Positions 1-37,894 of a DNA stretch of 64,000 bases are shown piece after piece. Source of the DNA: an uncultured Clostridia bacterium (GTDB lineage: Bacteria > Bacillota > Clostridia > TANB77 > CAG-508); NCBI GenBank assembly GCA_944393385.1, contig CALYAA010000003.1:29363-93362 (forward strand). The letters are read 5' to 3'. Under the pieces are notes generated by a model. That model ran no database searches and had not been told where the DNA came from. It worked only from the letters and a program-made list of their open reading frames with translations. Made by a program: the position numbers and the translations under genes. How positions within the stretch are numbered: the stretch's first letter is position 1; the number at the start of each line of letters is the position of its first letter.

Positions 1-1118
1 TTAATATTATTTTTTATTTCTTTTATTTTTTTATTTATTTTTATTATTTTAACTAAATATATAAAAATAATTATTAAAATTGGAAAAAATAAAATATATT
101 TTAAATTATTAATTTTTTTAGGAATAAAAATAAAACCAACAATATTTAATATAATTAAAATAAATAATATTAAATTATATTTTTTTAATATTTTATTTTT
201 TATTATTTTATTTTTTTCTAATATTTCATTATTATTTTTTATATCATTATTTTCTATATTTTTATTATTTATTTTTTTATTTAAATCAATTTTTTTATAA
301 TTATTTTCTTCATTTATTTTTTCTTTTATTTTCATTTTTTCTTGATTTATTTCTGTTTTTTCATAAATGTTTTTTATTTCTTTTAATAAATTATTTTTTA
401 TATTTTCTTTATTAATTTTATTTTCTACTTCATTTATTTTTTCTCGAATTTCAAATTGAATATTTTTATTATTTTTTAATTCTTCTATTTTTTTATTATT
501 TTCTTCTATTTTTTTCTGTATTATATTTATTGGTTTTTCTTTGCTTCTTTCTGTTCCTATTTTTTCCAATTGTAATTTGTTTAGTTTGTCAATGGTCTTT
601 TTATATGATATGTTATCTTCTCCTGTTCCCAATAGGTTAGAGATTTTTTGAATAAGTATATTTTGTTTTCCTCTTCCAATTTTTACCTCTTGTTGTTGAG
701 AAACTGCAGTTGATAAATACATATTTAAGTTAATATTTGTTTGTTCATAAAAAAATTCATTTCCATTTTTTTTATTTATATTATATTCATCTGAAATATC
801 ATTTCCTTTTTCATTAAATATTTTTGGATTTTTTTTATTAAATTCTCTAAATATTTCGAATTTATTTTTATTGTCTAATTCATATATTAATTTTCCAGAA
901 TATTCTGTACTATCCCATGGATTATATTTATCAAAATCAGAAATTTCTTTTCCATTTTTATTTCTTGAGATTCCAAATAAAATATTATTTATAAAATTAA
1001 CTATTGTTGATTTTCCACTTTCGTTTTTTCCATAAATAATATTCAAATGATTTTCTAAATTAATTTCTTTATTTTTTATTTTTCCATATGAATTTATTTT
1101 TATTTTATTTATTTTCAA
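1..1118 (-). CDS. AAA/SMC-type ATPase, YhaN/SbcC-like (N-terminal part; ORF runs off the left edge)
   Basis: I translated the minus strand by hand from TTG at 1118 (preceded by GGAGGG). It is stop-free to base 1. It reads LKINKIKINSYGKIKNKEINLENHLNIIYGKNESGKSTIVNF (Walker A GKNESGKST), then a long K/N/E coiled coil, then a two-helix hydrophobic hairpin (LILFILIILNIVGFIFIP...ILFFPILIIIFIYLV). It lies directly downstream of the Mre11/SbcD-like gene. It is absent from the ORF track, probably because it is truncated by the window. Confidence 0.6.
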   Translation of the reverse strand, partial: MKINKIKINSYGKIKNKEINLENHLNIIYGKNESGKSTIVNFINNILFGISRNKNGKEISDFDKYNPWDSTEYSGKLIYELDNKNKFEIFREFNKKNPKIFNEKGNDISDEYNINKKNGNEFFYEQTNINLNMYLSTAVSQQQEVKIGRGKQNILIQKISNLLGTGEDNISYKKTIDKLNKLQLEKIGTERSKEKPINIIQKKIEENNKKIEELKNNKNIQFEIREKINEVENKINKENIKNNLLKEIKNIYEKTEINQEKMKIKEKINEENNYKKIDLNKKINNKNIENNDIKNNNEILEKNKIIKNKILKKYNLILFILIILNIVGFIFIPKKINNLKYILFFPILIIIFIYLVKIIKINKKIKEIKNNI

Positions 1119-1137
1119 AATAAATCCCTCCAAATTA

Positions 1138-2208
1138 TTATTCTAATATTTCCATACCTATTTCTAATGCTCTATTTATTATATTTTTATTATATGGATC
1201 ATTTTCTAATTCTTTTAATATTTCTTTTGCAAATAATCCCCTTAAATTATTTTCTTTAGATATTTTTTCTATATTGTAATTAATTGTTGTTTTATTTTTT
1301 ATTTTTATAATTTTTTCGTCTAATTGATATTTATATATATCATTTAGATTTATTTCAAAATTTCTTTTTCCAATTAATATAATTTCATATAAATTATTAT
1401 TTTTTAATTTCGAAAAATTTATTTTTTCAATTAATTCTTCTATAGATTTAATCTCTGTACAATTTATTTCTAACTTTTCAAATTGTACATCATCTAATTT
1501 AATAAATTTCAATTTATTTTTTTGTTTTGTTATCTCACCCACAACCATACCATGTTCACCAAGTTCATCAAAGCCCATTGCAATCGTTGAACCTGGATAT
1601 ATAATTGTTCCATCTTCTGTAAAATTTTTTTTATGAATATGTCCTAATGCAATATAGTTAAATCCTTTTTCTTCAAGAATTTTTTTACTCATTGAATTAT
1701 ATTGCATATCTTCTAAATTTGCTCCGTCTAAAGTTCCGTGAATAATTAATATATTAATTTTGTTTTTATTTTGAATTTTAAATTTACTAAAATCTAAATT
1801 TGAGCAATAAAAATCATTAAAGCCATAACCATAGATATCTACTTCTTCTGTTTCTACTTTTTGTAATTCTGATGTAAATATATAAACATTGTCATTCCAA
1901 ATAAAATTATTGTAATATGAATTTTTTAAAAAGGGGTCATGATTTCCTGGAGAAATAAATATTTGAGTTTCATTTATTTCTTTAAATAAGTCATTTAAAT
2001 ATTCTATTGTTGATTTTCTTATAAATTCATGCTCATATAAATCTCCAGATATAAAAAAATATTTTATGTGATTATCTTTTATATATTCTATTATCTTATT
2101 TAATATTTTTCTTTGGTCATATCTTCTTTGTTCTCCTATACCATTTTTATCTGAAAGCATCTTGAATTGAGCATCTAAGTGCATATCTGCTATATGTACA
2201 AATTCCAT
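1138..2208 (-). CDS. Mre11/SbcD-family metallophosphoesterase (DNA repair exonuclease, YhaO/SbcD-like)
   Basis: Calcineurin-like phosphoesterase motifs are present: HIADMHLD, SGDLYE, GNHD and GHIH. It is paired with a downstream SMC-like ATPase. Confidence 0.8.
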   Translation of the reverse strand: MEFVHIADMHLDAQFKMLSDKNGIGEQRRYDQRKILNKIIEYIKDNHIKYFFISGDLYEHEFIRKSTIEYLNDLFKEINETQIFISPGNHDPFLKNSYYNNFIWNDNVYIFTSELQKVETEEVDIYGYGFNDFYCSNLDFSKFKIQNKNKINILIIHGTLDGANLEDMQYNSMSKKILEEKGFNYIALGHIHKKNFTEDGTIIYPGSTIAMGFDELGEHGMVVGEITKQKNKLKFIKLDDVQFEKLEINCTEIKSIEELIEKINFSKLKNNNLYEIILIGKRNFEINLNDIYKYQLDEKIIKIKNKTTINYNIEKISKENNLRGLFAKEILKELENDPYNKNIINRALEIGMEILE

Positions 2209-2465
2209 TTTAAAATTGTTTCCTTTCTCTTTAGTTTTGAATTAATAAATTTATTCTAAAATTTTAATATATAAATAAATTTTTATTTTGAATATAATTA
2301 AAATTTTTTATAAAGTGCATTTTTACTAATTTCACATATATATTTTACAACATTTGTTCTGTTTTTTCAATATTTTTGACATAAAAAGTAAAATTGTGTA
2401 CGTTTTTTATGGCAAAGCCCTATTATTCAATAAAAAAATCATTTTCATATTAAATGACAAAAACT

Positions 2466-2496
2466 GAGGTAGAAAGCTTTTAAAGTTTTCTACCTC
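2466..2496 (-). terminator. Hairpin terminator downstream of the coupling-protein gene
   Basis: A 10-bp stem (gaggtagaaa / tttctacctc) sits about 45 nt after the stop at 2543. On the minus strand it is followed by a T-rich stretch. Confidence 0.5.
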
Positions 2497-2542
2497 AACT
2501 ATTGATATTTAATCATTTTTTGTAGCCTTATTTATATGATTT

Positions 2543-4618
2543 TTATTCATCATCATCAATTGGTCCAAATAATTCATCAAATTTTGCCTCTAATTCTTTT
2601 TGTAAGTCATATGTATCTTCATCATCTTCAACAATCGGTGTTTGTTTTGGAACTTCATCTTGTTTAATATCACCAAAAGAATCTTCTGTTATTATTCCTA
2701 CAGCTCCTGAATTTTGTTGTTCAGAATCTTTTTCGTTAAGGTTTTGATTATTATTTTCAACCATTATTTTTTGAGCTTTATTTGAGTTTTCTTTTTTTTG
2801 ATCTGATGGTTCATCTGTAAATAAATCATCCAAAGATTCTATTTTTAAATCTTTTGCTTCTTTTTCTGTTTTATCCTCAGTCCATGGATTATATGGATTA
2901 AATTTTCTCCATGTTCCACGATCGATTTGACCTATATCATTATGACTTATTTCTGCCTTTCTTAAACTACTTTCCATATTTTTATGTTTAAAGTAGTAAA
3001 ATTTATTTGCTTTAACTGGTTTAATTCCTTTTTCAAAAATAATACATAAATCATTATCTAATCTTCTTAATTCATCTGGTGTCATTAATGCTCTTGCCAT
3101 TACTTGGTCAGAATCACTTGTTCCTGTTCTATGATGCTGTTTATCTCTATTTATTGATATACTTTCTCTTTCAATTGTTTTTTCACCTAATGCTTTTGAA
3201 AAATATTCAACAGTTTTATATGAGTTACTTCCTAAAAATACATGTGTATCACAGTTACCTATTATTGTTTCATATGATTTATCATATATTGCTTCTAATT
3301 GGTCTAAGTTCTGTAATATAACACTAAATGATATTTTTCTACTTCTTGATGTTGATATTTTTTTATCAAAATCTGGTATTTTTCCAATATTAGCAAACTC
3401 ATCTAATATGAAATATGTTGGAACTTTTAATTTTCCACCATTATCATCTGCAAAATTGTATAATTGTTGTATCATTTGAGCAAAGAATATTGTTAGTAAA
3501 AAGTCATATGCAGTATGTGTATCTGAAGATATAACATATACTGCTGTTTTTCTACTTCCTATATCTTCAAACTTGATTGTATCTGTTGAAGTTAATTCTG
3601 CTATTTCTTTTGAATCAAATTTTCCTAATTTTGATTGTAATGTACTTAATATTGAACTATATGTCTTTTCTGGTGCTATTTCTATTGATTTATAATTCAT
3701 TCTTGCAGGATGATCATATGGTAATTTACTCATTAATTCTGTTAATAAATTACTTCCTCCATTAGAGTTTGCTGCTCTTACCAATTCTGCGCAACTTGCT
3801 AAATTCTGTTCTTCTTCTGGTCTTGTGGCCATCAAATAATAAATTAATGCTTTTAATAACATTTCTGCAGAATCATCCCAAAATGGATCTGAGCCCCCAG
3901 AATCTGTTTTTTGACCTTTTACAATTGTATTTGCTATAACATCAACATCTATTTCTGAAGAAATATGCATTAATGGATTATACCCATCACTATTTTGAGG
4001 TTTAACTAAATTAAGTACTTTAATTTCATATCCATTTTGTTTTAAATATCCTGCAGTTCTATCATATAATTCTCCTTTAGGATCTGTAAATACATATGAT
4101 CCTAATTGTTGATATGCATTTGGAATTGAATATGATGCTGATTTACCTGATCCAGAACCTCCGACTACTAATACATTGACATTTCCCCTTTTATCAACTG
4201 GTAAATAATTGTTTTCAGCAAGTATTATTCCTTTTTTATTGCTTAAAACTTGGTATTGCTCTCCATTTTTACTCCAATCACTTGAACCATGTTCCATATC
4301 TGTATATTCGTTTTTTGGAGATGCTTTTATTAATCCTATTACCATTAAAATAGCAAATAGAATTGTAAATAGTCCAACATTTTTTAAATATTGTAAAAAT
4401 ATTCCTTCACTAAATAATGTTCCAAAAGATTGAAATATATGTTGCATTGAATTAACTATTCCTTCAAATCCAGCAGTTATATCTTGTTGTACTTGTGCTT
4501 CATGAATTGCAATTGTTAAAGGCATAACTAATACTATGGATATAAATAACCATAGTATTGCAAAAATTATAAAATATTTTCTTGTCCTTCTAATAGCTCC
4601 AGAAATTTTGTAATTCAT
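2543..4618 (-). CDS. Type IV coupling protein (VirD4/TraG/TraD family ATPase)
   Basis: The N-terminus has TM helices. Walker A is VLVVGGSGSGKSASYSIPN and Walker B is TYFILDEFANIGKIP. The C-terminal tail is acidic (...EDDEDTYDLQKELEAKFDELFGPIDDDE). The ORF track starts at GTG 4630. I prefer ATG 4618, which has GAAGGTG 9 nt upstream. Confidence 0.8.
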   Translation of the reverse strand: MNYKISGAIRRTRKYFIIFAILWLFISIVLVMPLTIAIHEAQVQQDITAGFEGIVNSMQHIFQSFGTLFSEGIFLQYLKNVGLFTILFAILMVIGLIKASPKNEYTDMEHGSSDWSKNGEQYQVLSNKKGIILAENNYLPVDKRGNVNVLVVGGSGSGKSASYSIPNAYQQLGSYVFTDPKGELYDRTAGYLKQNGYEIKVLNLVKPQNSDGYNPLMHISSEIDVDVIANTIVKGQKTDSGGSDPFWDDSAEMLLKALIYYLMATRPEEEQNLASCAELVRAANSNGGSNLLTELMSKLPYDHPARMNYKSIEIAPEKTYSSILSTLQSKLGKFDSKEIAELTSTDTIKFEDIGSRKTAVYVISSDTHTAYDFLLTIFFAQMIQQLYNFADDNGGKLKVPTYFILDEFANIGKIPDFDKKISTSRSRKISFSVILQNLDQLEAIYDKSYETIIGNCDTHVFLGSNSYKTVEYFSKALGEKTIERESISINRDKQHHRTGTSDSDQVMARALMTPDELRRLDNDLCIIFEKGIKPVKANKFYYFKHKNMESSLRKAEISHNDIGQIDRGTWRKFNPYNPWTEDKTEKEAKDLKIESLDDLFTDEPSDQKKENSNKAQKIMVENNNQNLNEKDSEQQNSGAVGIITEDSFGDIKQDEVPKQTPIVEDDEDTYDLQKELEAKFDELFGPIDDDE

Positions 4619-4643
4619 ATGTAAATTCACCTTCTCTTTTGTT

Positions 4644-4925
4644 TTATTTTATTTGGTCATCTTCTTTATTTTTAGTAGATTTATGTAATTTAGCATCTTT
4701 TTTGTTATCTTCTTTTACATTATTAGAATAAGCTTTAATTACAATATAGTCTGTTGGTATAACTTCTCTATGTAATTTACCTTTAGCCTCTAATTCAAAT
4801 ACTTGTGTTGTTTTTTCTCCAGCCTTTTTTCCTATTTCTTTTACTTTTTGATTTATTTGCATACCTACAATAACTGTTTTATCATTTAAACCTGCTGGTC
4901 TTTTCTTTACTGTGTGATTCCCCAT
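4644..4925 (-). CDS. Hypothetical basic 93-aa protein, immediately upstream of the coupling protein in the same operon
   Basis: The ORF has a strong SD (AAGGAGG). It is Lys-rich and I recognise no motif. Confidence 0.55.
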   Translation of the reverse strand: MGNHTVKKRPAGLNDKTVIVGMQINQKVKEIGKKAGEKTTQVFELEAKGKLHREVIPTDYIVIKAYSNNVKEDNKKDAKLHKSTKNKEDDQIK

Positions 4926-4944
4926 AGTAAAATATCCTCCTTAA

Positions 4945-5484
4945 TTATTCACCTCTTACTTCAAACGCGAAATAAGACTTATATGGTTTTAATTTACATT
5001 TTCCCTTTACTTTATTTTCTTTCTCATCAAAATAAAGTCGAGGTTTTATTTCTTCTGTAGTTTCAGGATCAATAACACATATGTCCCTTTTTAAATTAGG
5101 GGTATAGTTAAAATCTTTAAATTCCTGTTCTTCTTCTGAATATAATGTATCAAACTTAAAAGCTGAAGGATTTTTTGCAATTCTAACTTCATTATCAATT
5201 AAAATACCAGAGTTTATTATTACTTTTTCTCCAGCAAACGAAAGAATTGCTAATTGATTTCCTTGTGGTTGTGGATTATCTACATAAAAAGTCTTTCTTC
5301 TAGAATCTCCTCTTATTTCCTCTGTATATTCTAATCTTTCAACTGTATATTTAGGATATTCTTTTAAAAAATCTTTTTCTGTTTTATTTATTTGATAAAT
5401 AACTGTATTAACACCTTGTGGATCTGTTATACTAAAATGTTTTCCTTGTAACATATCCATTTTTTTATTTTCCTCACTTTCCAT
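4945..5484 (-). CDS. Hypothetical 171-179-aa protein, first gene of the coupling-protein operon
   Basis: The ORF lies downstream of a perfect sigma-A consensus promoter. The second ATG (5460) has the better SD (GTGAGGAAA). I recognise no motif. Confidence 0.55.
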   Translation of the reverse strand: MESEENKKMDMLQGKHFSITDPQGVNTVIYQINKTEKDFLKEYPKYTVERLEYTEEIRGDSRRKTFYVDNPQPQGNQLAILSFAGEKVIINSGILIDNEVRIAKNPSAFKFDTLYSEEEQEFKDFNYTPNLKRDICVIDPETTEEIKPRLYFDEKENKVKGKCKLKPYKSYFAFEVRGE

Positions 5485-5529
5485 GCTAATCCATAGAATT
5501 GTCTTTTGTTAATCAAATCACCAATATTA

Positions 5530-5558
5530 ATTATACCGTATTTTACTGGGTTTGTCAA
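5530..5558 (-). promoter_or_regulatory. Consensus sigma-A promoter (TTGACA-N17-TATAAT) for the 179aa-93aa-coupling protein operon
   Basis: The minus strand reads TTGACAaacccagtaaaatacggTATAAT. The -35 is at 5553-5558 and the -10 at 5530-5535, with exactly 17 nt spacing. It lies about 45 nt upstream of ATG 5484. Confidence 0.65.
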
Positions 5559-5591
5559 CTTTTTTTGTTATTATGTTAAACATTTTTACAT

Positions 5592-6473
5592 TTAGACTCT
5601 TCTTGGATTAAATTTTGATATTTCTTTTAATTTTTTAAACATATCTTTTTCTTCTTTTGAAACACTTTCTGGAACTACAATCTCAATTTTTCCTATTAAT
5701 TTTCCTCTTTCTCCATTTGGTGTTTTATAACCTTTTCCTGGAATTTCGAAAATTTGACCAGATTGCACTCCATTTGGTACATAAATTTGAGTTTCTGAAT
5801 CATCTATTGATTTAACCTTAAGTTTTGTTCCAAGTACTGCTTCCCATGGTGTAATAGGTATTACTGTATATAAGTCATTATCTTTTAATTGATATTTTTT
5901 GCTATCTTCTATATTTATTTTTATATATAAATCTCCATTTTTTCCACCATTTTTACCTGGCTTTCCTTGACCAACTAATCTAATTTTTTCTGAATTTTTT
6001 ACTCCTTCTGGTAGTTTCATTGTTATTTTTTTATTTTTATTTTCAATATCTTTTAAAAGTATTGTTTTATTTGCTCCAAAAAAGCCCTCTTCAATTGTAA
6101 TATTTATTTCAGTCTCAATATTCTCTCCATTTATTGCAGGAATACTTGATTGGCCAATTTCTTCTTTTTGTTCATTATTTCCAAAAAACATTCCAAAAAA
6201 TTCTCCTGCCATTTGACTTGAAGTTTTTACATGATTTCTTTTTCTTCCTATAGCATAATTCCAAGTTCTATCATATTTTCGTTTTGTTGATGTTTCTGAA
6301 AGAATTTTATATGCTTCGTTTATATCTTTTATTTTTTCTTCTGCTAGTTTATTTCCTACATTTACATCTGGATGGTATTTTTTTGCTTGTTTTCTATATG
6401 CTGATTTTATTTGATCTAAAGTAACCTTATTGTCTTCTAAATCTAGTATTTTATAGTAGTCTTTAAATTTCAT
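5592..6473 (-). CDS. DnaJ-domain co-chaperone, CbpA-like (J domain plus DnaJ C-terminal domain, no zinc finger)
   Basis: J domain: DYYKILDLEDNKVTLDQIKSAYRKQAKKYHPDVN. The C-terminal region has a DnaJ_C-like beta-rich sequence. No CxxCxGxG repeats are present. Confidence 0.8.
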   Translation of the reverse strand: MKFKDYYKILDLEDNKVTLDQIKSAYRKQAKKYHPDVNVGNKLAEEKIKDINEAYKILSETSTKRKYDRTWNYAIGRKRNHVKTSSQMAGEFFGMFFGNNEQKEEIGQSSIPAINGENIETEINITIEEGFFGANKTILLKDIENKNKKITMKLPEGVKNSEKIRLVGQGKPGKNGGKNGDLYIKINIEDSKKYQLKDNDLYTVIPITPWEAVLGTKLKVKSIDDSETQIYVPNGVQSGQIFEIPGKGYKTPNGERGKLIGKIEIVVPESVSKEEKDMFKKLKEISKFNPRRV

Positions 6474-6490
6474 TTGATATCCCCCAATAC

Positions 6491-6530
6491 AATAAAAAAT
6501 TGGTATACTTATTATACCAATTTTTTTTCA
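6491..6530 (-). terminator. Rho-independent terminator after murF
   Basis: The stem is ttggtata/tataccaa with a 5-nt loop. It is flanked by an A-run and a T-run, and the minus-strand reading gives hairpin + TTTTTTATT. Confidence 0.6.
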
Positions 6531-6536
6531 AAAAAT

Positions 6537-7907
6537 CTATAGTTTTTGACAAATTTCGTAAAATTTCATTGCATTTGATGCTTTAATTAATACTACATCT
6601 CCTTCCTTTAAAATTTCTTCTAGTTTTTTTATAATTTCATCATTTGATTGTAACTCCATAATTTGTAATTTCTTATTTTTTTGTGCCCCTTCAATTATTT
6701 GTTTTGAATATTTTCCTCTACAAATCAAAACATCAATATTATTTGTTGCTACTTCTTCTCCTACTTTTCTATGTAACTCTTCTGAAAATTCTCCCAGTTC
6801 TAACATATCTCCTAAAACCGCAATTTTTCTTAAATCTGTACGATTTGATAGATATTTTAAACTTGCTTTCATTGATTCATAACTTGCATTATAACTATCA
6901 TTGATTATTGTTGCTCCATTATTTAAAGTTTTTATATCCATTCTTTTTTTGGTTAACTCAAATGTTAAAATTCCATTTTGAATTTCCTCATTAGATAAAT
7001 TAAACATTTCTCCTACCATAATTCCACATAAAGCATTATATATAAAATGTTCTCCTCCTACTGGCACATCTATCTCTATATTACACCCATCTTTAATTAT
7101 AGCAGTAAATTTACTATTCTCTTCCCCTAAGTTAATATTTTTAGCATTTATTTCACTTTCATTTTTTATACCATAAGTATGTATTTCAATTTTATTTTTA
7201 TTTTTCTCATACCAACTATGTAACAAATCATTATCATTATTAATTATTAATTTAGGGATTTCCATTCCTTCTAATATTTCAAGTTTTGCTTTCAAGATAT
7301 TTTCTCTTGAGCCTAAATTGCCTATATGTGATGTTCCAATATTAGTAATTATTGCTAATGTAGGTTTTGCAATTTGTGTTAATAATCTAATTTCTCCAAA
7401 ATGATTCATGCCCATTTCTACAACTAATGCTTCATGATTTTTTAACTTTAGTATTGTCATTGGTAATCCTATATTATTATTAAAATTTCCTTCTGTTTTT
7501 AATGTTTTAAATTTTTGTCCAAGAACATTTGCAACAATATCCTTTGTACTTGTTTTTCCAACACTTCCTGTTATTGCTATAACAGGAATATTATATTGTT
7601 TTCTTTTATATGTAGCAAGTTCATATAGTGATTTTAAAGTATCTTCAACTATTATTATTACTTTATCTTTATAAATTAATTTGTCTTCATCAGTAATTTT
7701 TATTTCTGAAACAATAACTGCTTTAGCTCCTGCATCTAATGCCTGTTTCCAAAAATCACTCCCATCAAATTTTTCTCCTTTTATACCTATATATAAATCA
7801 TTTTCTTGTATTGTTCGAGTATCTTTTGAAAAGTTTTCTATCTCAGTTTTTAAATCTCCAATAATTAATTTTCCTTTTGTTACATTTAAAATTTCTTCTA
7901 TTTTCAT
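6537..7907 (-). CDS. murF: UDP-N-acetylmuramoyl-tripeptide--D-alanyl-D-alanine ligase
   Basis: Mur ligase P-loop ITGSVGKTSTKD. The N-terminus is MurF-like (DTRTIQENDLYIGIKGEKFDGSDF), and the length of 456 aa fits. Confidence 0.9.
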   Translation of the reverse strand: MKIEEILNVTKGKLIIGDLKTEIENFSKDTRTIQENDLYIGIKGEKFDGSDFWKQALDAGAKAVIVSEIKITDEDKLIYKDKVIIIVEDTLKSLYELATYKRKQYNIPVIAITGSVGKTSTKDIVANVLGQKFKTLKTEGNFNNNIGLPMTILKLKNHEALVVEMGMNHFGEIRLLTQIAKPTLAIITNIGTSHIGNLGSRENILKAKLEILEGMEIPKLIINNDNDLLHSWYEKNKNKIEIHTYGIKNESEINAKNINLGEENSKFTAIIKDGCNIEIDVPVGGEHFIYNALCGIMVGEMFNLSNEEIQNGILTFELTKKRMDIKTLNNGATIINDSYNASYESMKASLKYLSNRTDLRKIAVLGDMLELGEFSEELHRKVGEEVATNNIDVLICRGKYSKQIIEGAQKNKKLQIMELQSNDEIIKKLEEILKEGDVVLIKASNAMKFYEICQKL

Positions 7908-7994
7908 AATTAATCATAATCCTTTCTCTTAAATATTATATTATTTTCTATATGATATTGCAACACAAATTTCTCCATTTTTTTGTCAATGGGT

Positions 7995-8065
7995 TGTCAA
8001 TGGGGACGGAGATTTTGACAACTTTTATATTAAAAAAGTTGTCAAAATCTCCGTCCCCATTGACA
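7995..8065. repeat. Perfect 32-bp inverted repeat (7-nt loop); probable transcript-end hairpin of the SASP gene
   Basis: 7995-8026 (ttgtcaatggggacggagattttgacaactttt) is the exact reverse complement of 8034-8065. It is locally GC-richer than its surroundings and begins 17 nt after the SASP stop. Confidence 0.6.
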
Positions 8066-14099: not shown

Positions 14100-14212
14100 A
14101 ATCTCTCTATGGAAAGCAACTCTCACATAAAAGTATCTACTTATTGCTGCTTCCTCCCGGACCTGACAAGATTCATAGGCTCCTATTGAGTTTGCTTTCC
14201 ATACAGAGGTTA
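14100..14212 (-). ncRNA. ffs: Signal recognition particle RNA (small 4.5S-type; ends approximate)
   Basis: The minus strand contains the conserved domain IV motif GUCAGGUCCGGGAGGAAGCAGC. A closing helix pairs CUCUGUAUGGAAAGCAAACUC with GAGUUGCUUUCCAUAGAGAG. Its position upstream of dnaX matches the Bacillus tadA-scr-dnaX-yaaK-recR synteny. Confidence 0.8.
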
Positions 14213-15020: not shown

Positions 15021-15472
15021 TTTTATTCTTTCTTAACTCCTTAAAAAATTGTTTTAATATATTTCTACATTCATTTTGCATAATTCCTACTTCAACTTCT
15101 ACTTTATGATTAAAAGTAAAATCTTTAAATAGATTTAAAACAGAACCAACAGCTCCTGTTTTTTCATCCATTGTTCCGAATATACACTTTTTTTATTCTA
15201 GAATTAATGATTGCTCCTGCACACATTGCACATGGCTCTAATGTAACATACATTTCACAATTTATTAATCTCCATGCAGTTAGCTTTTTACTTGCTTTTT
15301 GAATTGCAATCATTTCTGCATGTTTTGTAGTATCTGTTTTTGTTTCTTTTTGATTATATCCTCTTGCTATTATTTTTCCATCTTTTACTATTACGGCCCC
15401 TACAGGTACTTCTAATTTTTTATATGCCTTTTTTGCTTCTCTTAAAGCTTCTTTCATAAACTTTTCTTGCAT
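15013..15472 (-). CDS. tadA: tRNA-specific adenosine deaminase TadA, reading frame interrupted by a 1-nt frameshift
   Basis: The 5' ORF (15164-15472) carries HAEMIAI...LEPCAMCAGAIINSRIKKVY, then terminates. The adjacent frame continues with the expected C-terminus FGTMDEKTGAVGSVLNLFKDFTFNHKVEVEVGIMQNECRNILKQFFKELRKNKNV*. The shift lies at or next to an A7 run (15188-15194). Confidence 0.8.
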
Positions 15473-15539: not shown

Positions 15540-15615
<76 letters not shown>

Positions 15616-29001: not shown

Positions 29002-29424
29002 CTATCTTTTTGTTACTCTAATTATATAGTCAAAATGTCCTTGGTTTATAATTCTACTTGTTGCAACTCCTTTATAGCTAATTTCTTTTCTAATTTGATT
29101 TGTAGAACCTGCTCCATATGTACCAACCCCATCTCCTGCAAATACTTCTATATGTCTTGATTGAGAAGCTTTTAACAAGAAATCTCCTGGTTGAGGTGTT
29201 TCAGTTGCCGTTGTTGCCCATTCCCAACCATATTGTGATAAATCATAATTTGCTCCAGGTGAACCTAATATCCAGCATAAGAAATCATTTGTAGATAATT
29301 GTACTTGTCCTATAAATTCTGTATATCCATATTGTATTAAAACCCATGTAACAAATGCACTACAATCAATTCCTCTAGTACTATTATCTGCCATTAGTTG
29401 ATTGTAACCTTCATTAGTTATCAT
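29002..29424 (-). CDS. NlpC/P60-family cell-wall peptidase domain protein (no signal peptide or anchor of its own)
   Basis: The catalytic Cys context is RGIDCSAFVTWVL. The His context is PGDFLLKASQSRHIEVFAGDG. Its start overlaps the upstream ORF stop (ATGATAACTAA). Confidence 0.7.
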   Translation of the reverse strand: MITNEGYNQLMADNSTRGIDCSAFVTWVLIQYGYTEFIGQVQLSTNDFLCWILGSPGANYDLSQYGWEWATTATETPQPGDFLLKASQSRHIEVFAGDGVGTYGAGSTNQIRKEISYKGVATSRIINQGHFDYIIRVTKR

Positions 29425-31197: not shown

Positions 31198-33777
31198 TTA
31201 TTTCGAAAATAGTCTTACTTCATCTGCATATTCTAGTACAGTATTTATATTAATATAATTCTCTGTTCTATTTGTCCTTGAACTACCTGGATCTAATACA
31301 TATACAAGTGTATCTCCACTAAATTTTATACCAACAACTGCTATAAAGTGTCCACCACCTGTATTATATGGATTATAAGGATCTGAATTTGCTTTAATAT
31401 GTACTATTGCAGGATTTCCGGCAGTTAGATGTTCTGTTAATTTTGTTCTAATATTATTTGTATATTTAGTTGCAGAAACTCCAGCAACTGACTGTGCCCA
31501 AGAAAACCACATATCTGTAGCTTCAGGACTAATTTCTGTTGGAGTATATGGTTGTCCTGTACTTGGATTTACTACGCCAAGTCCACTTAAACATGTTGCT
31601 AAAGATGTTCTACCACATATGTTTGTTCCTTTTTCTTGTTTAAAATAGTGATATTCTCTAGATACAATTAATTTACCATCTTGGTCTGTTGTTGTAATTG
31701 TTGTTAGTTTCTCTAAATGCCATGCTGTTCTTCCTGAACCACCTGACTTCTTTCCAGAAGCTGAACTTGTTGCATATGAGTCTACATCTACTGTATATCC
31801 ACTTGTTGAACCATCATAATTGTAACTATAAAGTGAATCTAAAGATAACCCTACAGCAAAGTTTATTTCTAGTTCTTTACTATTATCTGTTAAATACTGA
31901 TATCCACTTAATTCTGCCAGTGTATATCTCATATATCTTTCCAGTTCTTGTGTATTTCCATTTTGCTCTAATAAGGCAAATAGTAAGTAAGATGCTGTTG
32001 ATAAATTATTTTCTACTTGAGGATATTCTTTTATTAAATTTATTATAAAATCTATTTTATAACTACCATTAATTATAGAATATACATGATATTCATTTTT
32101 CCATGTAGCATAATTTTCATATATGAAAAAGTGTGTATTTCTCCATTCATATAGATATGAATAATGGTTAGCCTCACAATGCTTTCCTACAAGAGTTGGA
32201 GGAAAAGGAGTTAATCTATCTACATATTCAACATAATATGGAGCAATTCGTGTTACACTTTGTATTCCATCAAACGGTCTTTCTATATCTCCAACTTTGG
32301 GAATTAATTTATAGTCAATATTCCAAGTATCTGCTTCTATTAAATATAAATCACCCGTATTTTTTATTTCAACATGTAAAAAATCTTTTAATACATATCC
32401 AGCATATTTTAAACATGTTAGATATACTTCTTCTACATTATTTAAATAAGTCCCTTCAATAGTTCCAACCATTTCAGGACCACCCTGGTGAGGATTATGT
32501 GTAGTTTCTGAAACTTCTTCACCTGTTTCTGGATCTGTAGTAGTTGATGTTGTATCAACACAACATTCCCATCTATTCCATCTTTCTACTAAATAATGAC
32601 TTATTGTTCCACCTCTTATTGCATCTTTTTCATCTGTACCATAATTATAATGTTCAAATTCACTTTCTGTTGCTTCTAATAAAGCAACTTCTATATATGT
32701 ATTTTCTTTATTACATTCTTCTAGTAAATCATTCATAAAATCAACATCTTGTGTCATCATATGCATTGCTAAAAAGAAATTTAATGGCGCTGCAGTTTGT
32801 TCTAATAAGTTTAAATATTCATATTGTCTTAATTCAAATGTATTTTCTACTACATCTGCTGTATTATAATAACTTGGTAATAATTCTACTTCTGCTGGAT
32901 CATTTGTTCCAGAATCATCTATTGCTCTTTCTGGTGGTGGATTATTATATTTCCATGTATATTTTTCTTCTGATGTTAACACACACAATTTTAATCCATT
33001 AGGATTAATAGAAAAATATTTTAAATATTCTTCTGTTTGTTCATGAGAATATACAGTTTCTTTTGACATTTCTACTAACTTATCATATGGTATATATTCT
33101 AGTGTAATACCATCTTCAAAGTCAGTACCACCTTCTTCTACAACCTCATATTCGTCTTGAGCATTATAACGTCCAAATTTAGCTGTATATCTTTTTACAA
33201 CAACATTTCCATTTATTGCAGTTTTTGCATAATCACCAATATCTGGCAACATATTTTTTAATTCTGTTCTTATATATTTATCAACAATATTTGTTAATTC
33301 TTCATCAGATTTATATGTTTGACTTTCATCATCTGATGCCATAAAATCATAATCTTCATCTCTTAATCCAAGTGCTAATGTATTTACAGAATATTCTTCT
33401 AATGTTCTTAAAATTCTTAACGCATAATTTGCATTTATTTCATATCCATTTTCTGTAATGGAAACCATATCTATTACATCTGAAGAAGATGCTTCAAAAC
33501 CACTAGCAACACTTGTAGAATTACTTAAACCAATATTTGATTTTTGCTCTTCTTCATCTGTTGTTGATCCACCTGTTGATGATGTTTCTGGTGCAACCGG
33601 TTGTGTGGATATTATTCCTCCACCTGGATCTGCCCAATCCATTGCATCTCCTATTTTATATGAATTTATTATATTTAAATTATTTGCAAAAACATTTCCA
33701 GTTGAAGAGAGCATTATTATAACTAAAAGAGCTATAAATATTAATTTTTTTATTATCTTATTTAATTTTTTCTTCAT
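31198..33777 (-). CDS. Secreted 859-aa protein with a C-terminal papain-fold (peptidase C39-like) cysteine peptidase domain
   Basis: The signal peptide is ...SSTGNVFA/NN. The C-terminus has GTNICGRTSLATCLSGLG (Cys motif), GGGHFIAVVGIKFSGDTLVYVLDPG (His motif) and a following Asp. I do not recognise the roughly 650-aa N-terminal region. Confidence 0.6.
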   Translation of the reverse strand: MKKKLNKIIKKLIFIALLVIIMLSSTGNVFANNLNIINSYKIGDAMDWADPGGGIISTQPVAPETSSTGGSTTDEEEQKSNIGLSNSTSVASGFEASSSDVIDMVSITENGYEINANYALRILRTLEEYSVNTLALGLRDEDYDFMASDDESQTYKSDEELTNIVDKYIRTELKNMLPDIGDYAKTAINGNVVVKRYTAKFGRYNAQDEYEVVEEGGTDFEDGITLEYIPYDKLVEMSKETVYSHEQTEEYLKYFSINPNGLKLCVLTSEEKYTWKYNNPPPERAIDDSGTNDPAEVELLPSYYNTADVVENTFELRQYEYLNLLEQTAAPLNFFLAMHMMTQDVDFMNDLLEECNKENTYIEVALLEATESEFEHYNYGTDEKDAIRGGTISHYLVERWNRWECCVDTTSTTTDPETGEEVSETTHNPHQGGPEMVGTIEGTYLNNVEEVYLTCLKYAGYVLKDFLHVEIKNTGDLYLIEADTWNIDYKLIPKVGDIERPFDGIQSVTRIAPYYVEYVDRLTPFPPTLVGKHCEANHYSYLYEWRNTHFFIYENYATWKNEYHVYSIINGSYKIDFIINLIKEYPQVENNLSTASYLLFALLEQNGNTQELERYMRYTLAELSGYQYLTDNSKELEINFAVGLSLDSLYSYNYDGSTSGYTVDVDSYATSSASGKKSGGSGRTAWHLEKLTTITTTDQDGKLIVSREYHYFKQEKGTNICGRTSLATCLSGLGVVNPSTGQPYTPTEISPEATDMWFSWAQSVAGVSATKYTNNIRTKLTEHLTAGNPAIVHIKANSDPYNPYNTGGGHFIAVVGIKFSGDTLVYVLDPGSSRTNRTENYININTVLEYADEVRLFSK

Positions 33778-33794: not shown

Positions 33795-34787
33795 TTATAA
33801 AGTAACTTGTATAGAAGTATAATTTGAATATGATGTTCTATTATGGGTATCTAAATAATCTTGGTAATCTAATATTACTTTGCTAAATATCATTTTGGTA
33901 GGTTTATTTGAAGCACTGTAAACTTTATTAAATCTTACTGTAACTTTTTTTACAGATCCTGGTTGTACTAAAATATCTCCTTCATCAAATTCGCTATTCA
34001 TAGAACTGTATACAACTTCTTCTTCATTAATTAAATAAACACTATTATCTTCTTCATATCCTGTAAAAGCAATTGTTTTATCAGAATTGTTTTGTAATTC
34101 CATTGTAATTTCTACATATCTACTATATGTATCTATTGTATCAATTTTTACATCAATATCATCAAATACATATCTTGTATTTTTATTTTCACCATAAATA
34201 TAATTATTTACATTTATTTTATAGCTTCCATCATCTTGTTTTACAAAAGTATAGTATTCATCATTAGCTGTAAATTTTGCTCCTCCAGTTGCTAACATAT
34301 CACCATTAAAAGTAACTTTGCATAATACTGTGTTTCCGTCTTGTGATACTCTTGATATTGAATATTCTTGTGGCTCTGCAAATCTTAAATCAATATAATA
34401 TTCTTTAAACGTTTTTGCATCATAATATTTTAATGCTGTTTTACATTCCTCTGTTATCAAATTAAATGCATTCTCTCCATCTCCATTATTACAATAATTA
34501 ACAAATAATTTCATTGTATTTTCTATTGTTTCATTAGATAAATCTGTAACACCTTCATCATTAATATTGTCCATTGTTACATTTTGACCATTTGTATATA
34601 CACTTCCTGTAGTAATATTACTTCCTTCTAGTTCTTTTTGGTTTTCTTCTTCTTTTTTTGCATAATAATAATTTAAACTATAAATTATTATTAATGCAAA
34701 TACTACACCTATTATTACATATATTATTGTTTTTTGATTTTTATTTATAAAACTTCTTAAACTATTAATATTACTCACCTCTTTCAT
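33795..34787 (-). CDS. Bitopic protein: TM anchor, one NTF2-like module, then an Ig-like (DUF4352-type) domain
   Basis: The TM segment is IIYVIIGVVFALIIIYSLNYYYA. The NTF2-like module is LFVNYCNNGDGENAFNLITEECKTALKYYDAKTFKEYY. The beta-rich C-terminus is VEITMELQNNSDKTIAFTG...VQPGSVKKVTVRF. Its start overlaps the upstream stop (ATGA). Confidence 0.5.
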   Translation of the reverse strand: MKEVSNINSLRSFINKNQKTIIYVIIGVVFALIIIYSLNYYYAKKEEENQKELEGSNITTGSVYTNGQNVTMDNINDEGVTDLSNETIENTMKLFVNYCNNGDGENAFNLITEECKTALKYYDAKTFKEYYIDLRFAEPQEYSISRVSQDGNTVLCKVTFNGDMLATGGAKFTANDEYYTFVKQDDGSYKINVNNYIYGENKNTRYVFDDIDVKIDTIDTYSRYVEITMELQNNSDKTIAFTGYEEDNSVYLINEEEVVYSSMNSEFDEGDILVQPGSVKKVTVRFNKVYSASNKPTKMIFSKVILDYQDYLDTHNRTSYSNYTSIQVTL

Positions 34788-37700
34788 TTTAAATAATCAT
34801 ATTCTTCATTATCTTCTACGGTTTCAAAGTCTTGTGCATTTTTTAACATTCCATTATAATATGTTCTTATTTCTTTTGCTGTTTTTGTTGTTCTATTTTG
34901 TTGTACCATTTCATCTATAAAGTTCTTTTTAGCTTGTTGACTTTCTGGCATTCCATATGTATCATTCATATTGTTTCTAAATTTAAATACTTGAACTGCC
35001 ATTTTATCAGCTTCTTCTTCTGTATAAGAATTATGTTGATATCTTAAATAATTTGAGTATCTAAATAATTTCTTTTGTTCTTCAACATCTGTTATTCCTT
35101 GTCTAGCAAATCTATCTCTTGCTCTACGTATCATTTCATTAGATCTTGAACCATATCTTTGCTTATATTTTTCTTGAACATCTTCTCTTTCTGACCAGTC
35201 TTTTGCAATTTGTGCTTTTCTTGATTCTTTTCTTGCATATCTTGTATCTTTTAACATATCTTTAACAGCTCTTTCACCTTTATTGTATACTCTTCCTCCT
35301 GCAGCAAAACCAGCTGCTAATGATGCACCTAATTCTCCAGGTCCATATTTTCCATCTGTTGCACTAATTCCTGCTTGTACTGCTCCAACTGTAACAGCCC
35401 CCATAATTTGAACTGCACCTTTTGCAATCTTTCCTCCTGCTCTAATTAAATTTTCTTTTCCTGATTTATCTGTATCCCAAACAGGGCTTACTGCACTTTG
35501 TGCAACTGCTCCTAAGCCTCTAGCTAGTGAACTGATTTTTCCTCTTTGCTTTGCTCTATCATAATTAATATTTGTTCTAACTGGTTTTCGTTGATATCCT
35601 TGTTGTCCTTTTTCAGAATCTTGTGTATCTTGGTCTGAATCTTGACTTGACTGTGTTCCACCATTTTGTTGATTTCCATTCGTTTGAGCTTGATTTTGTT
35701 GGCCTTGTTGAGTCTGTTGTGAAGTTTGAGAACCAGAACCACCTCCAGCAACTAAACTTGGGTCAGCATCTTGTTGTGTAAAGTCTTTATTTTTTTCAAG
35801 TCTTAATCTTTCTATTTCATCTAATTTAGAATCATATTCTGCATAATTTTTGCTTCTTAATGCCATTTCTGCTTCACATTCTAGCATATCTTCTTTATTT
35901 CCATTAGCTTTGGCTTCTTCATACATTTCTTTTAATTCATCATCTGTTAAATTAGAATATTTTCTCTTTAAGAATGCTTGTGGTCCATTATGCATTCTAA
36001 AGAATTTATTTTCCATCATTCTTCTATTTAATATATTAAAGTAATATTCTGCCATTTTCATATCTCCAGCTTTTATACTGTCTCTCATTTTTTCTAATAT
36101 TTGATTAGAATTTAAATGAGAAAGTGAATCTGTATATTGAAGTGGGATATTTGCTTTATTAAATGGATCTTCATTACGTTTTATAAAGTTTTCCATATAG
36201 TCTAAACGTTTTTTAGTTTTATTATTATATCCTCCTTTGACTCCCATTTGAATTCCATTTAATTTTAATTCATTAAATGCTATTTCAAATTTTTCATTTT
36301 CATCTTTTGCTTTTTCTAAGTCTACATCTGTTAAATTTCTTCTTATATTATAAATATTTTTATCTAAATTTAATGGATTTGAATAATCAATTCCTCCATA
36401 TCTTTTTTCAAATGCTTCATCTTCTTTATCTTCATCATATCCTGAATCTGAACTGCTATTAGTAAAATCATTTTTTGAACTATCTTGTGAATTATATGCA
36501 CTATTTAATCTTCCACTTTGTTTAGGATGAATAATATCTCTAATACCATGTGATATTGAAGACATAACAGCTAAGCTTCCTACTGTTTTTGCTAGTCCGC
36601 CTACTGTTCCACCACTTGCTCTTCCGAATTCAAATATTTTCTTCATTAGTTTTTCCGCTTCAGATAAGAAGAATAATGCAATTATTGCATAAACAGGATT
36701 ATTTACGGCTAATTGTACAGCTCCTCCTATTAATATATTATATAAAAGTAAATGTACTACTTGTAATAATGCATTAAACATATATTCTTTTAACCAAAAT
36801 CCAAAAGTCCTAGATTTTCCTCCATCTAATTTATCTAATGGATACATCATAGCAACAAGTGGTGCACTTAAGGTTAAAAAAGCCATATTTATCATTCTTT
36901 TGAAATATATATATGTAAATTTACATGTTAGAGTTATAAATCCAAAGTAAATCACTATAAATCCTAATTTATTAATTAATGAATTTTGTTGTGATTCAAA
37001 TCTCGCTAACCCCATTATATTAGTTACAAAAGTTTTATCTTGAAAAACAACTTTTACATTTCCAACTGTTGCACTTATTAATGTTGTTAAGTTTTGTATA
37101 AGTGATATTATAAAAGCCATTATATAATGCATAGTAAATACTAGAAATACTGCAACAACCCAATTTATAAAACTCTTTTTATATTCTGCTTTTTTTCCAG
37201 CACTAGAAGTAAGAATAATTCTAATTCCAATATATATCAATATTGATAATAAACCAACTATTGCAATAAGTCTTAATGTTCTATACCATGATGCAACTGT
37301 TCTTCTTATAGAATTCCAACCATCAGAAGAATTATCTATTTCTTGTCCATCTTTAACTGTTTTTCCTCCAATAAAATCTATTCCAAACAAATCAATTTCA
37401 CCTTTAAATATTTCTTCTGGAGTATATTTAAATTCTGGATATCTTAATTCTGGTACAATTCCTTTATTGTTTTTAAATTTATCTATTTCTTCTTGAGTAA
37501 AAGTTTTAGTTGTATTTGCATCTGCAATATCCAAAGAAGAATCTAATTCTCCCCATTTGGGCATTACATACTCAAATGTTGTTCCTAACATGCAACTACT
37601 TAAAACTGACATAATTGCATCTCCTACAGCCATTAACATTTCCAATAATAATGATAAAATGGTACCTGTATCATCATCAACATCTGAAGATAAGTTGTCA

Positions 37701-37894
37701 TCATCTGAATTTGTATATGCATCATCTGGATCAATTACTTCTTCAATTTGGCTTGGCAGTTGTTCTGTTTGGTCAATTGGATTTCCTTCTTCATCTACCG
37801 GATAAGCATATGAAATGTCAATATATAAATATGGAAACATCAAACAAATTAAAATCATACATACCAAAACTTTTTTTAGTTTATTTATTAGCAC
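34784..37894 (-). CDS. VirB6-like polytopic T4SS membrane protein, paralogue 3 (1036 aa, most divergent)
   Basis: It shares the core with paralogues 1 and 2: YPEFKYTPEEIFKGEIDLFGIDFIGG, ASWYRTLRLIAIVGLLSILIYIGIRI, MHYIMAFIISLIQ, RMINMAFLTLSAPLVAMMYPLDK, WLKEYMFNALLQVVH and NPVYAIIALFFLSEAEKLMKKIFEFGRASGGTVGG. It also has an extra roughly 230-aa insert, a Q-rich linker, and the C-terminal motif SPVWDTDKSGKEN...VGAVQAGISATDGKYGPGE. Confidence 0.7.
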   Translation of the reverse strand: MLINKLKKVLVCMILICLMFPYLYIDISYAYPVDEEGNPIDQTEQLPSQIEEVIDPDDAYTNSDDDNLSSDVDDDTGTILSLLLEMLMAVGDAIMSVLSSCMLGTTFEYVMPKWGELDSSLDIADANTTKTFTQEEIDKFKNNKGIVPELRYPEFKYTPEEIFKGEIDLFGIDFIGGKTVKDGQEIDNSSDGWNSIRRTVASWYRTLRLIAIVGLLSILIYIGIRIILTSSAGKKAEYKKSFINWVVAVFLVFTMHYIMAFIISLIQNLTTLISATVGNVKVVFQDKTFVTNIMGLARFESQQNSLINKLGFIVIYFGFITLTCKFTYIYFKRMINMAFLTLSAPLVAMMYPLDKLDGGKSRTFGFWLKEYMFNALLQVVHLLLYNILIGGAVQLAVNNPVYAIIALFFLSEAEKLMKKIFEFGRASGGTVGGLAKTVGSLAVMSSISHGIRDIIHPKQSGRLNSAYNSQDSSKNDFTNSSSDSGYDEDKEDEAFEKRYGGIDYSNPLNLDKNIYNIRRNLTDVDLEKAKDENEKFEIAFNELKLNGIQMGVKGGYNNKTKKRLDYMENFIKRNEDPFNKANIPLQYTDSLSHLNSNQILEKMRDSIKAGDMKMAEYYFNILNRRMMENKFFRMHNGPQAFLKRKYSNLTDDELKEMYEEAKANGNKEDMLECEAEMALRSKNYAEYDSKLDEIERLRLEKNKDFTQQDADPSLVAGGGSGSQTSQQTQQGQQNQAQTNGNQQNGGTQSSQDSDQDTQDSEKGQQGYQRKPVRTNINYDRAKQRGKISSLARGLGAVAQSAVSPVWDTDKSGKENLIRAGGKIAKGAVQIMGAVTVGAVQAGISATDGKYGPGELGASLAAGFAAGGRVYNKGERAVKDMLKDTRYARKESRKAQIAKDWSEREDVQEKYKQRYGSRSNEMIRRARDRFARQGITDVEEQKKLFRYSNYLRYQHNSYTEEEADKMAVQVFKFRNNMNDTYGMPESQQAKKNFIDEMVQQNRTTKTAKEIRTYYNGMLKNAQDFETVEDNEEYDYLK

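Follow-up and report, generated by a model that had tools for sequence, protein, structure and literature searches.

Type IV secretion systems (T4SSs) have repeatedly been co-opted for new functions (Guglielmini et al., 2013; PMC3548315). Systems that secrete proteins do not need a relaxosome and usually do need a type IV coupling protein (T4CP), and as of 2012 protein delivery had been shown solely for Proteobacterial systems of the MPF-T and MPF-I types (PMC3548315). The rvh T4SS of the Rickettsiales is vertically inherited, is scattered into islets and has five VirB6 paralogues (Gillespie et al., 2009; PMC2653234). This text deals with a three-gene operon that ends in a VirD4/TraG-type T4CP, situated in a 64-kb stretch of contig CALYAA010000003.1 from an uncultured Clostridia bacterium. 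The whole stretch, called the window below, has a GC content of ~25% and is part of the chromosome of a spore-forming Firmicute; sporulation-type genes in it are ypeB, spoIIR and a Germane-domain gene. The T4CP belongs to the same curated hidden Markov model family as the CD1115-family T4CPs encoded by the plasmids pCDC3875 of Clostridium botulinum, pSXP-169_2 of Clostridium perfringens and pDY28-optrA of Enterococcus faecium.

Comparison with related loci shows an operon with intact genes that is subject to strong purifying selection, is passed on vertically and has a fixed place among core genes throughout a large gut Clostridia lineage. At least 80 species of these uncultured bacteria have the operon in common, and their true number is probably several hundred. 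It is rather probable that the operon is the coupling module of a domesticated Gram-positive T4SS that is inherited vertically, was formerly part of a Firmicutes conjugative element of the CD1110/CD1115 type and is now a core trait of low-GC, spore-forming gut Clostridia.

The organisation resembles that of rvh, as an analogy and not as a homology between the islands. Both are T4SSs kept within a lineage by vertical descent, and in both the genes have been rearranged into separate chromosomal islets. Channel genes have been multiplied as well: the five VirB6 paralogues of rvh compare with three tandem polytopic proteins of 943–1036 amino acids (aa) and several VirB2-like pilins in the present system. 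Moreover, the substrates were unknown at the first description of each system. However, rvh is a Gram-negative system of the P-type (VirB/D4) in obligate intracellular Alphaproteobacteria, whereas the present one occurs in Gram-positive, spore-forming gut Clostridia, and rvh has no equivalent of ORF171 or ORF93, the products of the first two open reading frames (ORFs) of the operon. A second likeness is that to the relaxase-less ('MOBless') T4SSs with other functions, effector-secreting systems among them, as the system is chromosomal and kept by its host, no relaxase is seen near its T4SS genes and the T4CP is retained, which is also the case in most T4SSs that secrete proteins (PMC3548315). 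The ComB system of Helicobacter pylori, which serves DNA uptake, differs in having no T4CP. The gonococcal island of Neisseria, which serves DNA release, has a relaxase, while none was found near the islands described here.

No literature report of this T4CP or T4SS was found. The published conserved surface structure of the order TANB77 is a Tad/CpaF-type pilus cluster, which is another system than this T4SS. What appears to be new is the domesticated, split and core-gene status of the system across the clade, the conserved consensus promoter and an invariant partner protein of the T4CP.

The coupling-protein operon and its core-gene context

The operon and the gene directly upstream of it comprise the following features.

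~2456–2500, minus strand: intrinsic terminator, hairpin GAGGTAGAAA...TTTCTACCTC followed by AGTTTTTGT (U-run), from direct sequence reading and RNA folding
2543–4618, minus strand: VirD4/TraG-type T4CP of 691 aa, from Pfam, NCBIfam, Walker motifs and transmembrane helices
4644–4925, minus strand: ORF93, a small basic protein (isoelectric point (pI) 9.7), with an AAGGAGG ribosome-binding site
4945–5460, minus strand: ORF171, from homologue lengths and ribosome-binding site
5530–5558, minus strand: sigma-A type promoter TTGACA-N17-TATAAT, the sole 12/12 consensus match in positions 1–8000 of the window
5592–6473, minus strand: cbpA, encoding a CbpA-type DnaJ co-chaperone (J domain and DnaJ_C), from Pfam and NCBIfam

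A first-pass annotation of the window had proposed a three-gene operon with the T4CP as last gene, a consensus promoter and a terminator of its own. These three elements were all recovered, with small corrections to the coordinates. The genes follow each other at 19 and 25 nt. For the first gene, a product of 171–179 aa had been given; homologue lengths and the ribosome-binding site agree on ATG 5460 as the most likely start, which narrows the product to 171 aa, while the 93 aa and the basic character of the second product stand. The T4CP frame is open over 2543–4630, with ATG 4618, preceded by the ribosome-binding site GAAGGTG, as its likely start. The exact sequence of the 691-aa protein starting there is recorded in 36 blocks of gut-metagenome assemblies; an exact look-up of the 695-aa version with a GTG start found none on record.

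The promoter read at 5558–5530 has left a clear footprint in related genomes. For the gene-order and promoter counts given here, the 80 T4CP loci with sufficient flank were used. Both hexamers are perfect in 78/80 loci and near-consensus in 80/80, the sequence of the 17-nt spacer drifts freely, and the distantly related locus L090 carries the same TTGACA-N17-TATAAT promoter. Since the hexamers are conserved while the spacer varies, the promoter is no chance match. On this sequence, expression of the operon looks constitutive. At the other end (~2500–2456), a simple terminator scan made no call; the hairpin is supported by folding instead, as the RNA of positions 2450–2545 folds at -20.8 kcal/mol (z = -4.0) and 0/200 shuffled sequences fold equally well.

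On its profile matches, the T4CP is securely identified as a member of an already known family. It matches the Pfam families T4SS-DNA_transf (E = 4e-88) and TraG-D_C (E = 9e-39), with Pfam bit scores of 296.7 for PF02534 (cutoff 20.1), 132.8 for PF12696 and 93.8 for PF10412. It also scores 451.5 bits against NCBIfam NF045973 ('VirD4-like conjugal transfer protein, CD1115 family'), which has a cutoff of 250. Its relatives in the PDB, found by sequence, are Cag5 (8dol) and TrwB. The Walker A and Walker B motifs and the acidic C-terminal tail, all pointed out before, are indeed present: VVGGSGSGKS and FILDEFANIG are at least 90% conserved over 72 species, and the C-terminal 146 aa have a pI of 4.3. 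A hydropathy scan places two N-terminal transmembrane helices at residues 12–43 and 73–102. This is also the sole T4CP of the window, as had been claimed, since tblastn found no second one in the 64 kb.

Conservation along the T4CP was profiled over the same 72 species in windows of 20 residues. The nucleotide-binding and all-alpha region (residues 101–540) has windows that are 68–99% identical, most of them at least 85%, and the membrane anchor is variable across relatives. In the tail, conserved motifs at residues 556–600 and 671–685 (DLQKELEAKFDELFG) flank a hypervariable linker (601–660); such a layout of two motifs around a hypervariable linker is typical of docking sites. The T4CP of L090 (8778–10728) was predicted as a pair of ORFs, one of 148 and the other of 511 aa, with the anchor apart from the ATPase; the gene may truly be divided, or the assembly may be in error.

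To place the operon among its relatives, one genome per GTDB species was scanned for T4CP homologues. Relatives were detected in 274 species, of which the best 80, 64–93% identical to the query, were compared. These come almost all from metagenome-assembled genomes of uncultured gut 'Clostridia bacterium' (human, rabbit, goat and other samples), and the single complete chromosome among the listed relatives measures 1.55 Mb. The order cbpA, ORF171, small ORF, T4CP is kept among core genes in 80/80 loci, and the gap of ~250–500 nt between ORF171 and the T4CP is always occupied by a small ORF. Most related loci also retain murF, ypeB, recR and dnaX upstream and sbcD downstream. The gene cbpA directly precedes ORF171 in all 80 loci and in L090, and does not do so in the distant loci L092 and L093; its position before ORF171 may reflect either function or merely conserved gene order.

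Across the 22 loci in which each of the nine compared genes is present, the median identities are 93.0% for recR, 84.5% for ORF171, 78.6% for the T4CP, 73.4% for dnaX, 72.5% for cbpA, 69.0% for murF, 68.5% for sbcD and 65.3% for ypeB. In pairwise comparisons of the query with four close species, the ratio of non-synonymous to synonymous substitution (dN/dS) is 0.02–0.08 for ORF171, 0.09–0.17 for the T4CP and 0.16–0.20 for murF. By these measures, ORF171 and the T4CP evolve more slowly than murF and dnaX and are conserved like core genes. The linkage also persists over larger distances: in distant triads, with T4CPs that are 41–48% and ORF171 proteins that are 28–40% identical to the query, it is maintained, with other core genes as neighbours. 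A neighbour-joining tree of small size, with midpoint root and with four plasmid T4CPs as the sole mobile-element members, was also built; in it, all triad-linked chromosomal T4CPs form one group apart from these four with a bootstrap value of 100.

Between the operon and the T4SS cluster lie, in window order, cbpA, murF, ypeB, a ugtP-like gene, recR, ybaB, dnaX, tadA, ttcA, genes for a phosphomutase and a UDP-glucose pyrophosphorylase, spoIIR, murA and rsmI, together spanning 22–23 kb. The first-pass annotation had described this stretch as essential core genes. This is right for murF, dnaX, recR, murA and rsmI and does not extend to the stretch as a whole, since ypeB, spoIIR, the ugtP-like gene and others are present as well. 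Its claim that the operon has resided here for a long time and is no mobile cassette is strongly supported by the same core context in 80/80 loci, evolution slower than that of murF and dnaX, the conserved promoter and the lack of mobility genes nearby.

The same data bear on the idea, raised as a possible objection at that time, that the operon is a decaying, functionless leftover of an old integrated conjugative element. The lack of the relaxase and pore-gene neighbours that are typical of the family would fit such a remnant. However, the relatives show an intact operon under selection: the frames are intact in most of the ~80 species, the exceptions being short contigs and L060, in which the match begins ~350 nt into the gene. 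Moreover, dN/dS values of 0.02–0.17 over ORF171 and the T4CP, an ATPase core with the window conservation of 68–99% (mostly at least 85%) described above, promoter hexamers that are kept while the spacer drifts and the recurrence of the exact T4CP in 36 assembly blocks all speak against decay, which makes this explanation hardly credible.

Some minor features of the intervening region may be mentioned. A small SRP RNA gene (14108–14200) is located directly upstream of dnaX-ybaB-recR and looks like ordinary core context. The tadA ORF (15164–15472) may be truncated, as its 102 aa match positions 7–101 of the 165-position TadA profile. A tRNA-Arg(CCT) gene lies beside it at 15540–15615.

Conjugative relatives and mobility genes

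Homologues of the T4CP are found in more than 5000 plasmid records. The best plasmid T4CPs, most of which are annotated as CD1115 family, are at most 37% identical to the query and align with just residues ~10–548. The query shares with the CD1115-family T4CPs two transmembrane helices and the Walker A and B motifs, and its presumed partner VirB4 and PrgI proteins are of the matching CD1110 and PrgI types. It differs from them by a tail of ~145 aa with clade-conserved motifs.

The gene contexts differ more strongly. Four plasmid loci of the CD1115 family have the order PcfB/DUF3801, VirD4, an additional gene, (VirB6,) PrgI, VirB4 and a hydrolase, and in 2/4 of them MobC and a relaxase precede PcfB/DUF3801. 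The general statement that T4CPs normally adjoin relaxase or pore genes, from which the earlier argument had started, thus holds for the four plasmid loci checked. This conjugative-locus context of NF045973 is not seen at the present operon, which has cbpA, ORF171 and ORF93 upstream of the T4CP, sbcD downstream and the pore genes 23 kb off. In other words, the query T4CP is apart from the pore genes, among core genes and vertically inherited, and the genes before it, in place of a relaxase or PcfB/DUF3801, are ORF171 and ORF93, of which no homologue exists on the searched plasmids. ORF171 does hold the same gene position relative to the T4CP as PcfB/DUF3801 in the mobile systems; it is, however, an all-beta protein of 171 aa without sequence or profile similarity to these proteins.

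Mobility genes were searched for in several ways. No relaxase or integrase domain was detected in the scanned ORFs of the 64-kb window. A tblastn search with MobC, two relaxases, four PcfB/DUF3801 proteins and one VirB6 as queries was run on the window plus 166 related loci, 2.69 Mb altogether. It revealed no MobC, MOBP relaxase, PcfB or DUF3801 within 10 kb of either island, and the VirB6 query found nothing over the same 2.69 Mb. The T4SS cluster is flanked by tRNA-Ser genes, and a search for att-type repeats of these yielded nothing but chance matches of A/T runs of at most 12 nt. An integrase, a relaxase, att repeats and a patchy distribution, by which an integrative conjugative element (ICE) or mobile cassette would be recognised, are all absent from the ORFs and loci searched.

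These searches are central to an alternative explanation, in which a relaxase and an oriT elsewhere in the chromosome use the T4CP and the origin-proximal T4SS for transfer of chromosomal or element DNA from one clade member to another, or for DNA release as in Neisseria. Several observations are in its favour. The T4CP passes the cutoff of a family defined on conjugative elements, and its closest annotated relatives are all in conjugation loci. The CbpA-type neighbour is homologous to a DNA-binding co-chaperone. In addition, the relaxase searches covered the 64-kb window and related loci rather than whole genomes, and the chromosomal T4SS of Neisseria, with its relaxase, has been kept for DNA export (PMC3548315). 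On the other hand, relaxase, MobC and PcfB genes are missing from the 166 loci within 10 kb of the islands and from the entire window, and the PcfB/DUF3801 gene found upstream of the T4CP in the four plasmids is replaced here by the unrelated ORF171. Conjugation genes are normally repressed, which is unlike the perfect promoter conserved across this clade. Fixation across species with core-gene-like conservation is likewise unexpected for an element that depends on transfer. Altogether, a role in conjugation or DNA release is regarded as unlikely, without being negligible.

ORF171 and ORF93

ORF171 is an acidic protein (pI 5.5), in the sequence of which no signal peptide or membrane-anchor pattern is evident. 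An AlphaFold2 model built from a diverse alignment (pLDDT 86.4, pTM 0.81) is all-beta, with two lobes at residues ~1–102 and ~113–167; an earlier run on the 179-aa version with a shallow alignment (at least 78% identity) had given a pLDDT of 41 and an unusable model. ORF171 is predicted to be a cytoplasmic, all-beta protein. Its family consists of 3948 clusters at 90% identity, reduced to 333 representatives by clustering at 50%; of the 3948 homologue clusters, 0 are named and 0 have a Pfam domain.

The first-pass annotation had recognised no motif in the two small proteins and had held that neither looks like a relaxase. Both points hold up: searches of Pfam, NCBIfam, PADLOC and PHROGs are empty for ORF171 as well as for ORF93 (for the latter with sequence profiles alone, at E ≤ 0.1 for Pfam and NCBIfam). 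Whether the small proteins might be a relaxase or nickase, or of the DUF3801 type, had been listed for checking. ORF171 as a relaxase or Rep_trans nickase was rejected, as there is no Pfam or NCBIfam match at E ≤ 0.1 and the all-beta model has no match in the PDB. PcfB/DUF3801 was rejected too, given the lack of a Pfam match and a probability of 0.15% in an hhalign comparison with the DUF3801 protein of pCDC3875. The recommended Foldseek comparison of the model with the PDB and BFVD gave no match at E ≤ 1e-3, just Ig-like noise with TM values below 0.35, and the ORF171 profile found nothing among PDB sequences. No similarity exists to the large proteins encoded in the window, and 72,556 plasmid and 50,697 phage records contain 0 homologues. 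ORF171 founds an uncharacterised protein family without a known fold match.

Stand-alone homologues of ORF171 at 40%, 29% and 28% identity are still followed by a small ORF and then a T4CP, in a setting of unrelated core genes, and the adjacent T4CPs are 41–48% identical to the query where measured. As the distant triads combine T4CPs at 41–48% with ORF171 proteins at 28–40%, ORF171 and the T4CP diverge together. Because the linkage is deeply conserved, a partner role is suggested for ORF171, which may act as an adaptor or regulator of the T4CP; similarly, ORF171 and ORF93 are candidates for adaptors or chaperones.

The ORF171-type domain also occurs inside proteins of 470–1050 aa with Sel1 repeats, some of which have an N-terminal TIR or Ser/Thr-kinase domain. 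Examples are P0188, P0197, P0205, P0225, P0237 and P0241, among others, with loci L087–L089, from bacteria with 42–43% GC. PADLOC matches on these fusions are confined to the TIR and kinase parts, and one of the fusion genes is located in a small integrase-bearing island. The possibility that the domain is a T4SS translocation signal (XVIPCD/BID-like) was rejected, as both TIR/Sel1 fusion contexts examined are without T4SS genes and no fusion of the domain with a T4CP was found among the family representatives. The domain is thus a general cytoplasmic module, probably for binding or sensing.

The second gene of the operon behaves differently. In every related locus examined, the position of ORF93 is taken by an ORF of 63–122 aa with a pI of 4.3–10.6. 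These proteins share merely short motifs, e.g., AAG..D and IKAY, and just 15 homologue clusters of ORF93 are detectable. With a dN/dS of 0.19–0.65, which is below 1, ORF93 is coding and under relaxed selection. The sequences thus describe a real, fast-evolving gene, the product of which is probably disordered.

The origin-proximal T4SS cluster and the putative role of the operon

The T4SS genes near the replication origin are arranged as follows, in order of transcription after the first line.

27668–48794, minus strand: origin-proximal T4SS gene cluster, from Pfam, NCBIfam and a transmembrane scan
47510–48794, minus strand: three small VirB2/T4SS_pilin-like proteins, first in transcription order
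47043–47402, minus strand: PrgI-like protein, from a profile match
45845–47077, minus strand: single-pass membrane ORF of 410 aa, from a transmembrane scan
43915–45897, minus strand: VirB4-like ATPase of 660 aa, with CD1110 as best NCBIfam match, below cutoff
34784–43848, minus strand: three tandem polytopic proteins of 943–1036 aa, with weak T4SS_pilin and pLS20_p028 matches
31198–33777, minus strand: C39_2 peptidase-domain protein of 859 aa, from Pfam and NCBIfam
29002–29424, minus strand: small NlpC/P60 protein, from Pfam and NCBIfam

An ORF for a 330-aa protein comes next after the three large polytopic genes, and the tail end of the cluster contains, besides the NlpC/P60 gene, three ORFs of 395, 184 and 422 aa. 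The cluster adjoins two tRNA-Ser genes, followed by parB, parA, rsmG and mnmG, and is ~10 kb from dnaA. The three large proteins may be VirB6-like, for which topology and the weak T4SS_pilin and pLS20_p028 matches are the evidence. There is an overlap between the 410-aa ORF and the start of virB4. Of the mycoplasma-ICE VirB4 profile, the 410-aa product weakly matches the N-terminal part and the 660-aa VirB4 positions 279–891, so that VirB4 may here be encoded by two genes.

A metagenome scan with VirB4 provided 80 loci for comparison. Their VirB4 proteins are 76–91% identical to the query, with pilins and large proteins at just ~25–70%, which indicates that the surface parts of the T4SS evolve fast. 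The order pilins, PrgI, 410-aa ORF, VirB4, large proteins and 330-aa ORF is kept, and the loci frequently adjoin parB, parA, rsmG and mnmG. No related T4SS locus has a T4CP within 10 kb, so that T4CP and machine are encoded apart throughout the clade. In L017, L025, L032 and L037 (~700–6700 in locus coordinates), extra copies of the large T4SS_pilin-domain proteins occur upstream of murF, and those of the last three loci are located between this gene and ypeB, upstream of the T4CP operon by a few kb. This family has thus been expanded and partly dispersed.

The T4CP appears to serve this origin-proximal T4SS. Its fit to CD1115, the best fit of VirB4 to CD1110 and the presence of a PrgI-like protein, a combination also seen on plasmids, indicate that the T4CP and the cluster belong to the same type of machine. 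It could be argued instead that the T4CP triad is a stand-alone membrane ATPase or translocase that works with ORF171, e.g., in DNA handling or sporulation, in which case the distance of 23 kb would be a sign of functional independence. The triad never adjoins T4SS genes in the loci examined, its neighbours have chaperone and DNA-metabolism roles (cbpA upstream and sbcD/sbcC downstream), with the sbcD/sbcC link kept in the distant triad L093, and the ORF171 domain is found outside T4SS contexts. However, the T4SS cluster would then be left without a T4CP of its own, in spite of the matching CD1115/CD1110 type of T4CP, VirB4 and PrgI. Both islands are conserved in the same gut Clostridia and to a similar degree (64–93% identity for the T4CP, 76–91% for VirB4), and we are not aware of a described VirD4-family T4CP that functions independently of a T4SS. 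A stand-alone role is therefore deemed improbable.

If the operon is the coupling module of a domesticated T4SS, the following mechanism can be envisaged. The T4CP would form a hexameric ATPase, anchored in the membrane via its two transmembrane helices, and would dock on VirB4 and on the channel of polytopic membrane proteins encoded 23 kb away. ORF171, the two-lobed cytoplasmic beta protein, would be its obligatory partner, acting as a recruitment or regulatory subunit in the position that PcfB/DUF3801 holds in mobile systems, and it may bind the conserved motifs of the T4CP tail. The hypervariable proteins of the ORF93 type could be short, probably disordered accessory factors or substrates. 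The machine would export proteins or nucleoprotein to neighbouring cells by contact, rather than serve the episodic self-transfer of an element. Such housekeeping-type transfer is considered most likely because no relaxase, oriT-associated gene or integrase was found at either island and expression looks constitutive. The host would seem to have recruited the system for constitutive use. The weakest of these points is that the substrate may be something other than a relaxase–DNA complex, since the relaxase searches covered the window and related loci.

A more far-reaching form of this proposal can be put forward only tentatively. It holds that a Gram-positive T4SS working without a relaxase is kept as a constitutively expressed core organelle by uncultured gut Clostridia of an entire order-level lineage. 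The ORF171 family and the hypervariable mini-protein would form a new class of T4CP partner, which would replace the PcfB/relaxosome interface and choose substrates that are novel or other than DNA for transfer to other cells on contact.

Several points weigh against assigning the operon to a domesticated T4SS. Cooperation of the T4CP with the cluster at 27–49 kb is deduced from co-conservation and matching family type, and interaction of ORF171 and ORF93 with the T4CP solely from gene linkage and co-divergence. The cluster is very divergent: its VirB4 scores 209.8 bits where the cutoff is 325, and none of its proteins was recognised as VirB8-like, so that the channel may be incomplete. The T4CP tree holds just four mobile-element members and has a midpoint root. 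The ORF171 domain is not a T4SS-specific module, as it is present in TIR, kinase and Sel1 proteins unlinked to a T4SS. Moreover, no substrate, effector or secretion signal was identified in this analysis, and an unlinked relaxase and oriT may exist elsewhere in the genome, which would make the system a conjugation machine.

Should the system have been recruited to a new function, it would be a clear monoderm case of a T4CP and T4SS fixed as core-like genes and, if relaxase-independent, a monoderm counterpart of the rvh system of the Rickettsiales. This would bear on how gut Clostridia interact with their neighbours or host. ORF171, as an abundant unannotated family with invariable linkage to the T4CP, is a candidate for a new mode of substrate recognition or regulation. 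The conserved promoter and T4CP core are well suited as clade markers in metagenomes.

The replication origin itself lies beyond the T4SS cluster. Here, the minus strand carries rnpA, yidC, jag, mnmE, mnmG, rsmG, parA and parB and the plus strand dnaA and dnaN, with a reversal of the GC skew at about 59–60 kb. Two adjacent copies of TGTGGATAACTT, which contains the DnaA-box-like TTATCCACA on the opposite strand, are located just upstream of dnaA (59749–59772); together with the switch in GC skew, they mark oriC. Lastly, the mnmE–jag intergenic region near the origin contains a tandem repeat (56324–56695) of 21.6 copies of the 17-bp unit TTATTTATTTATTTTTA.

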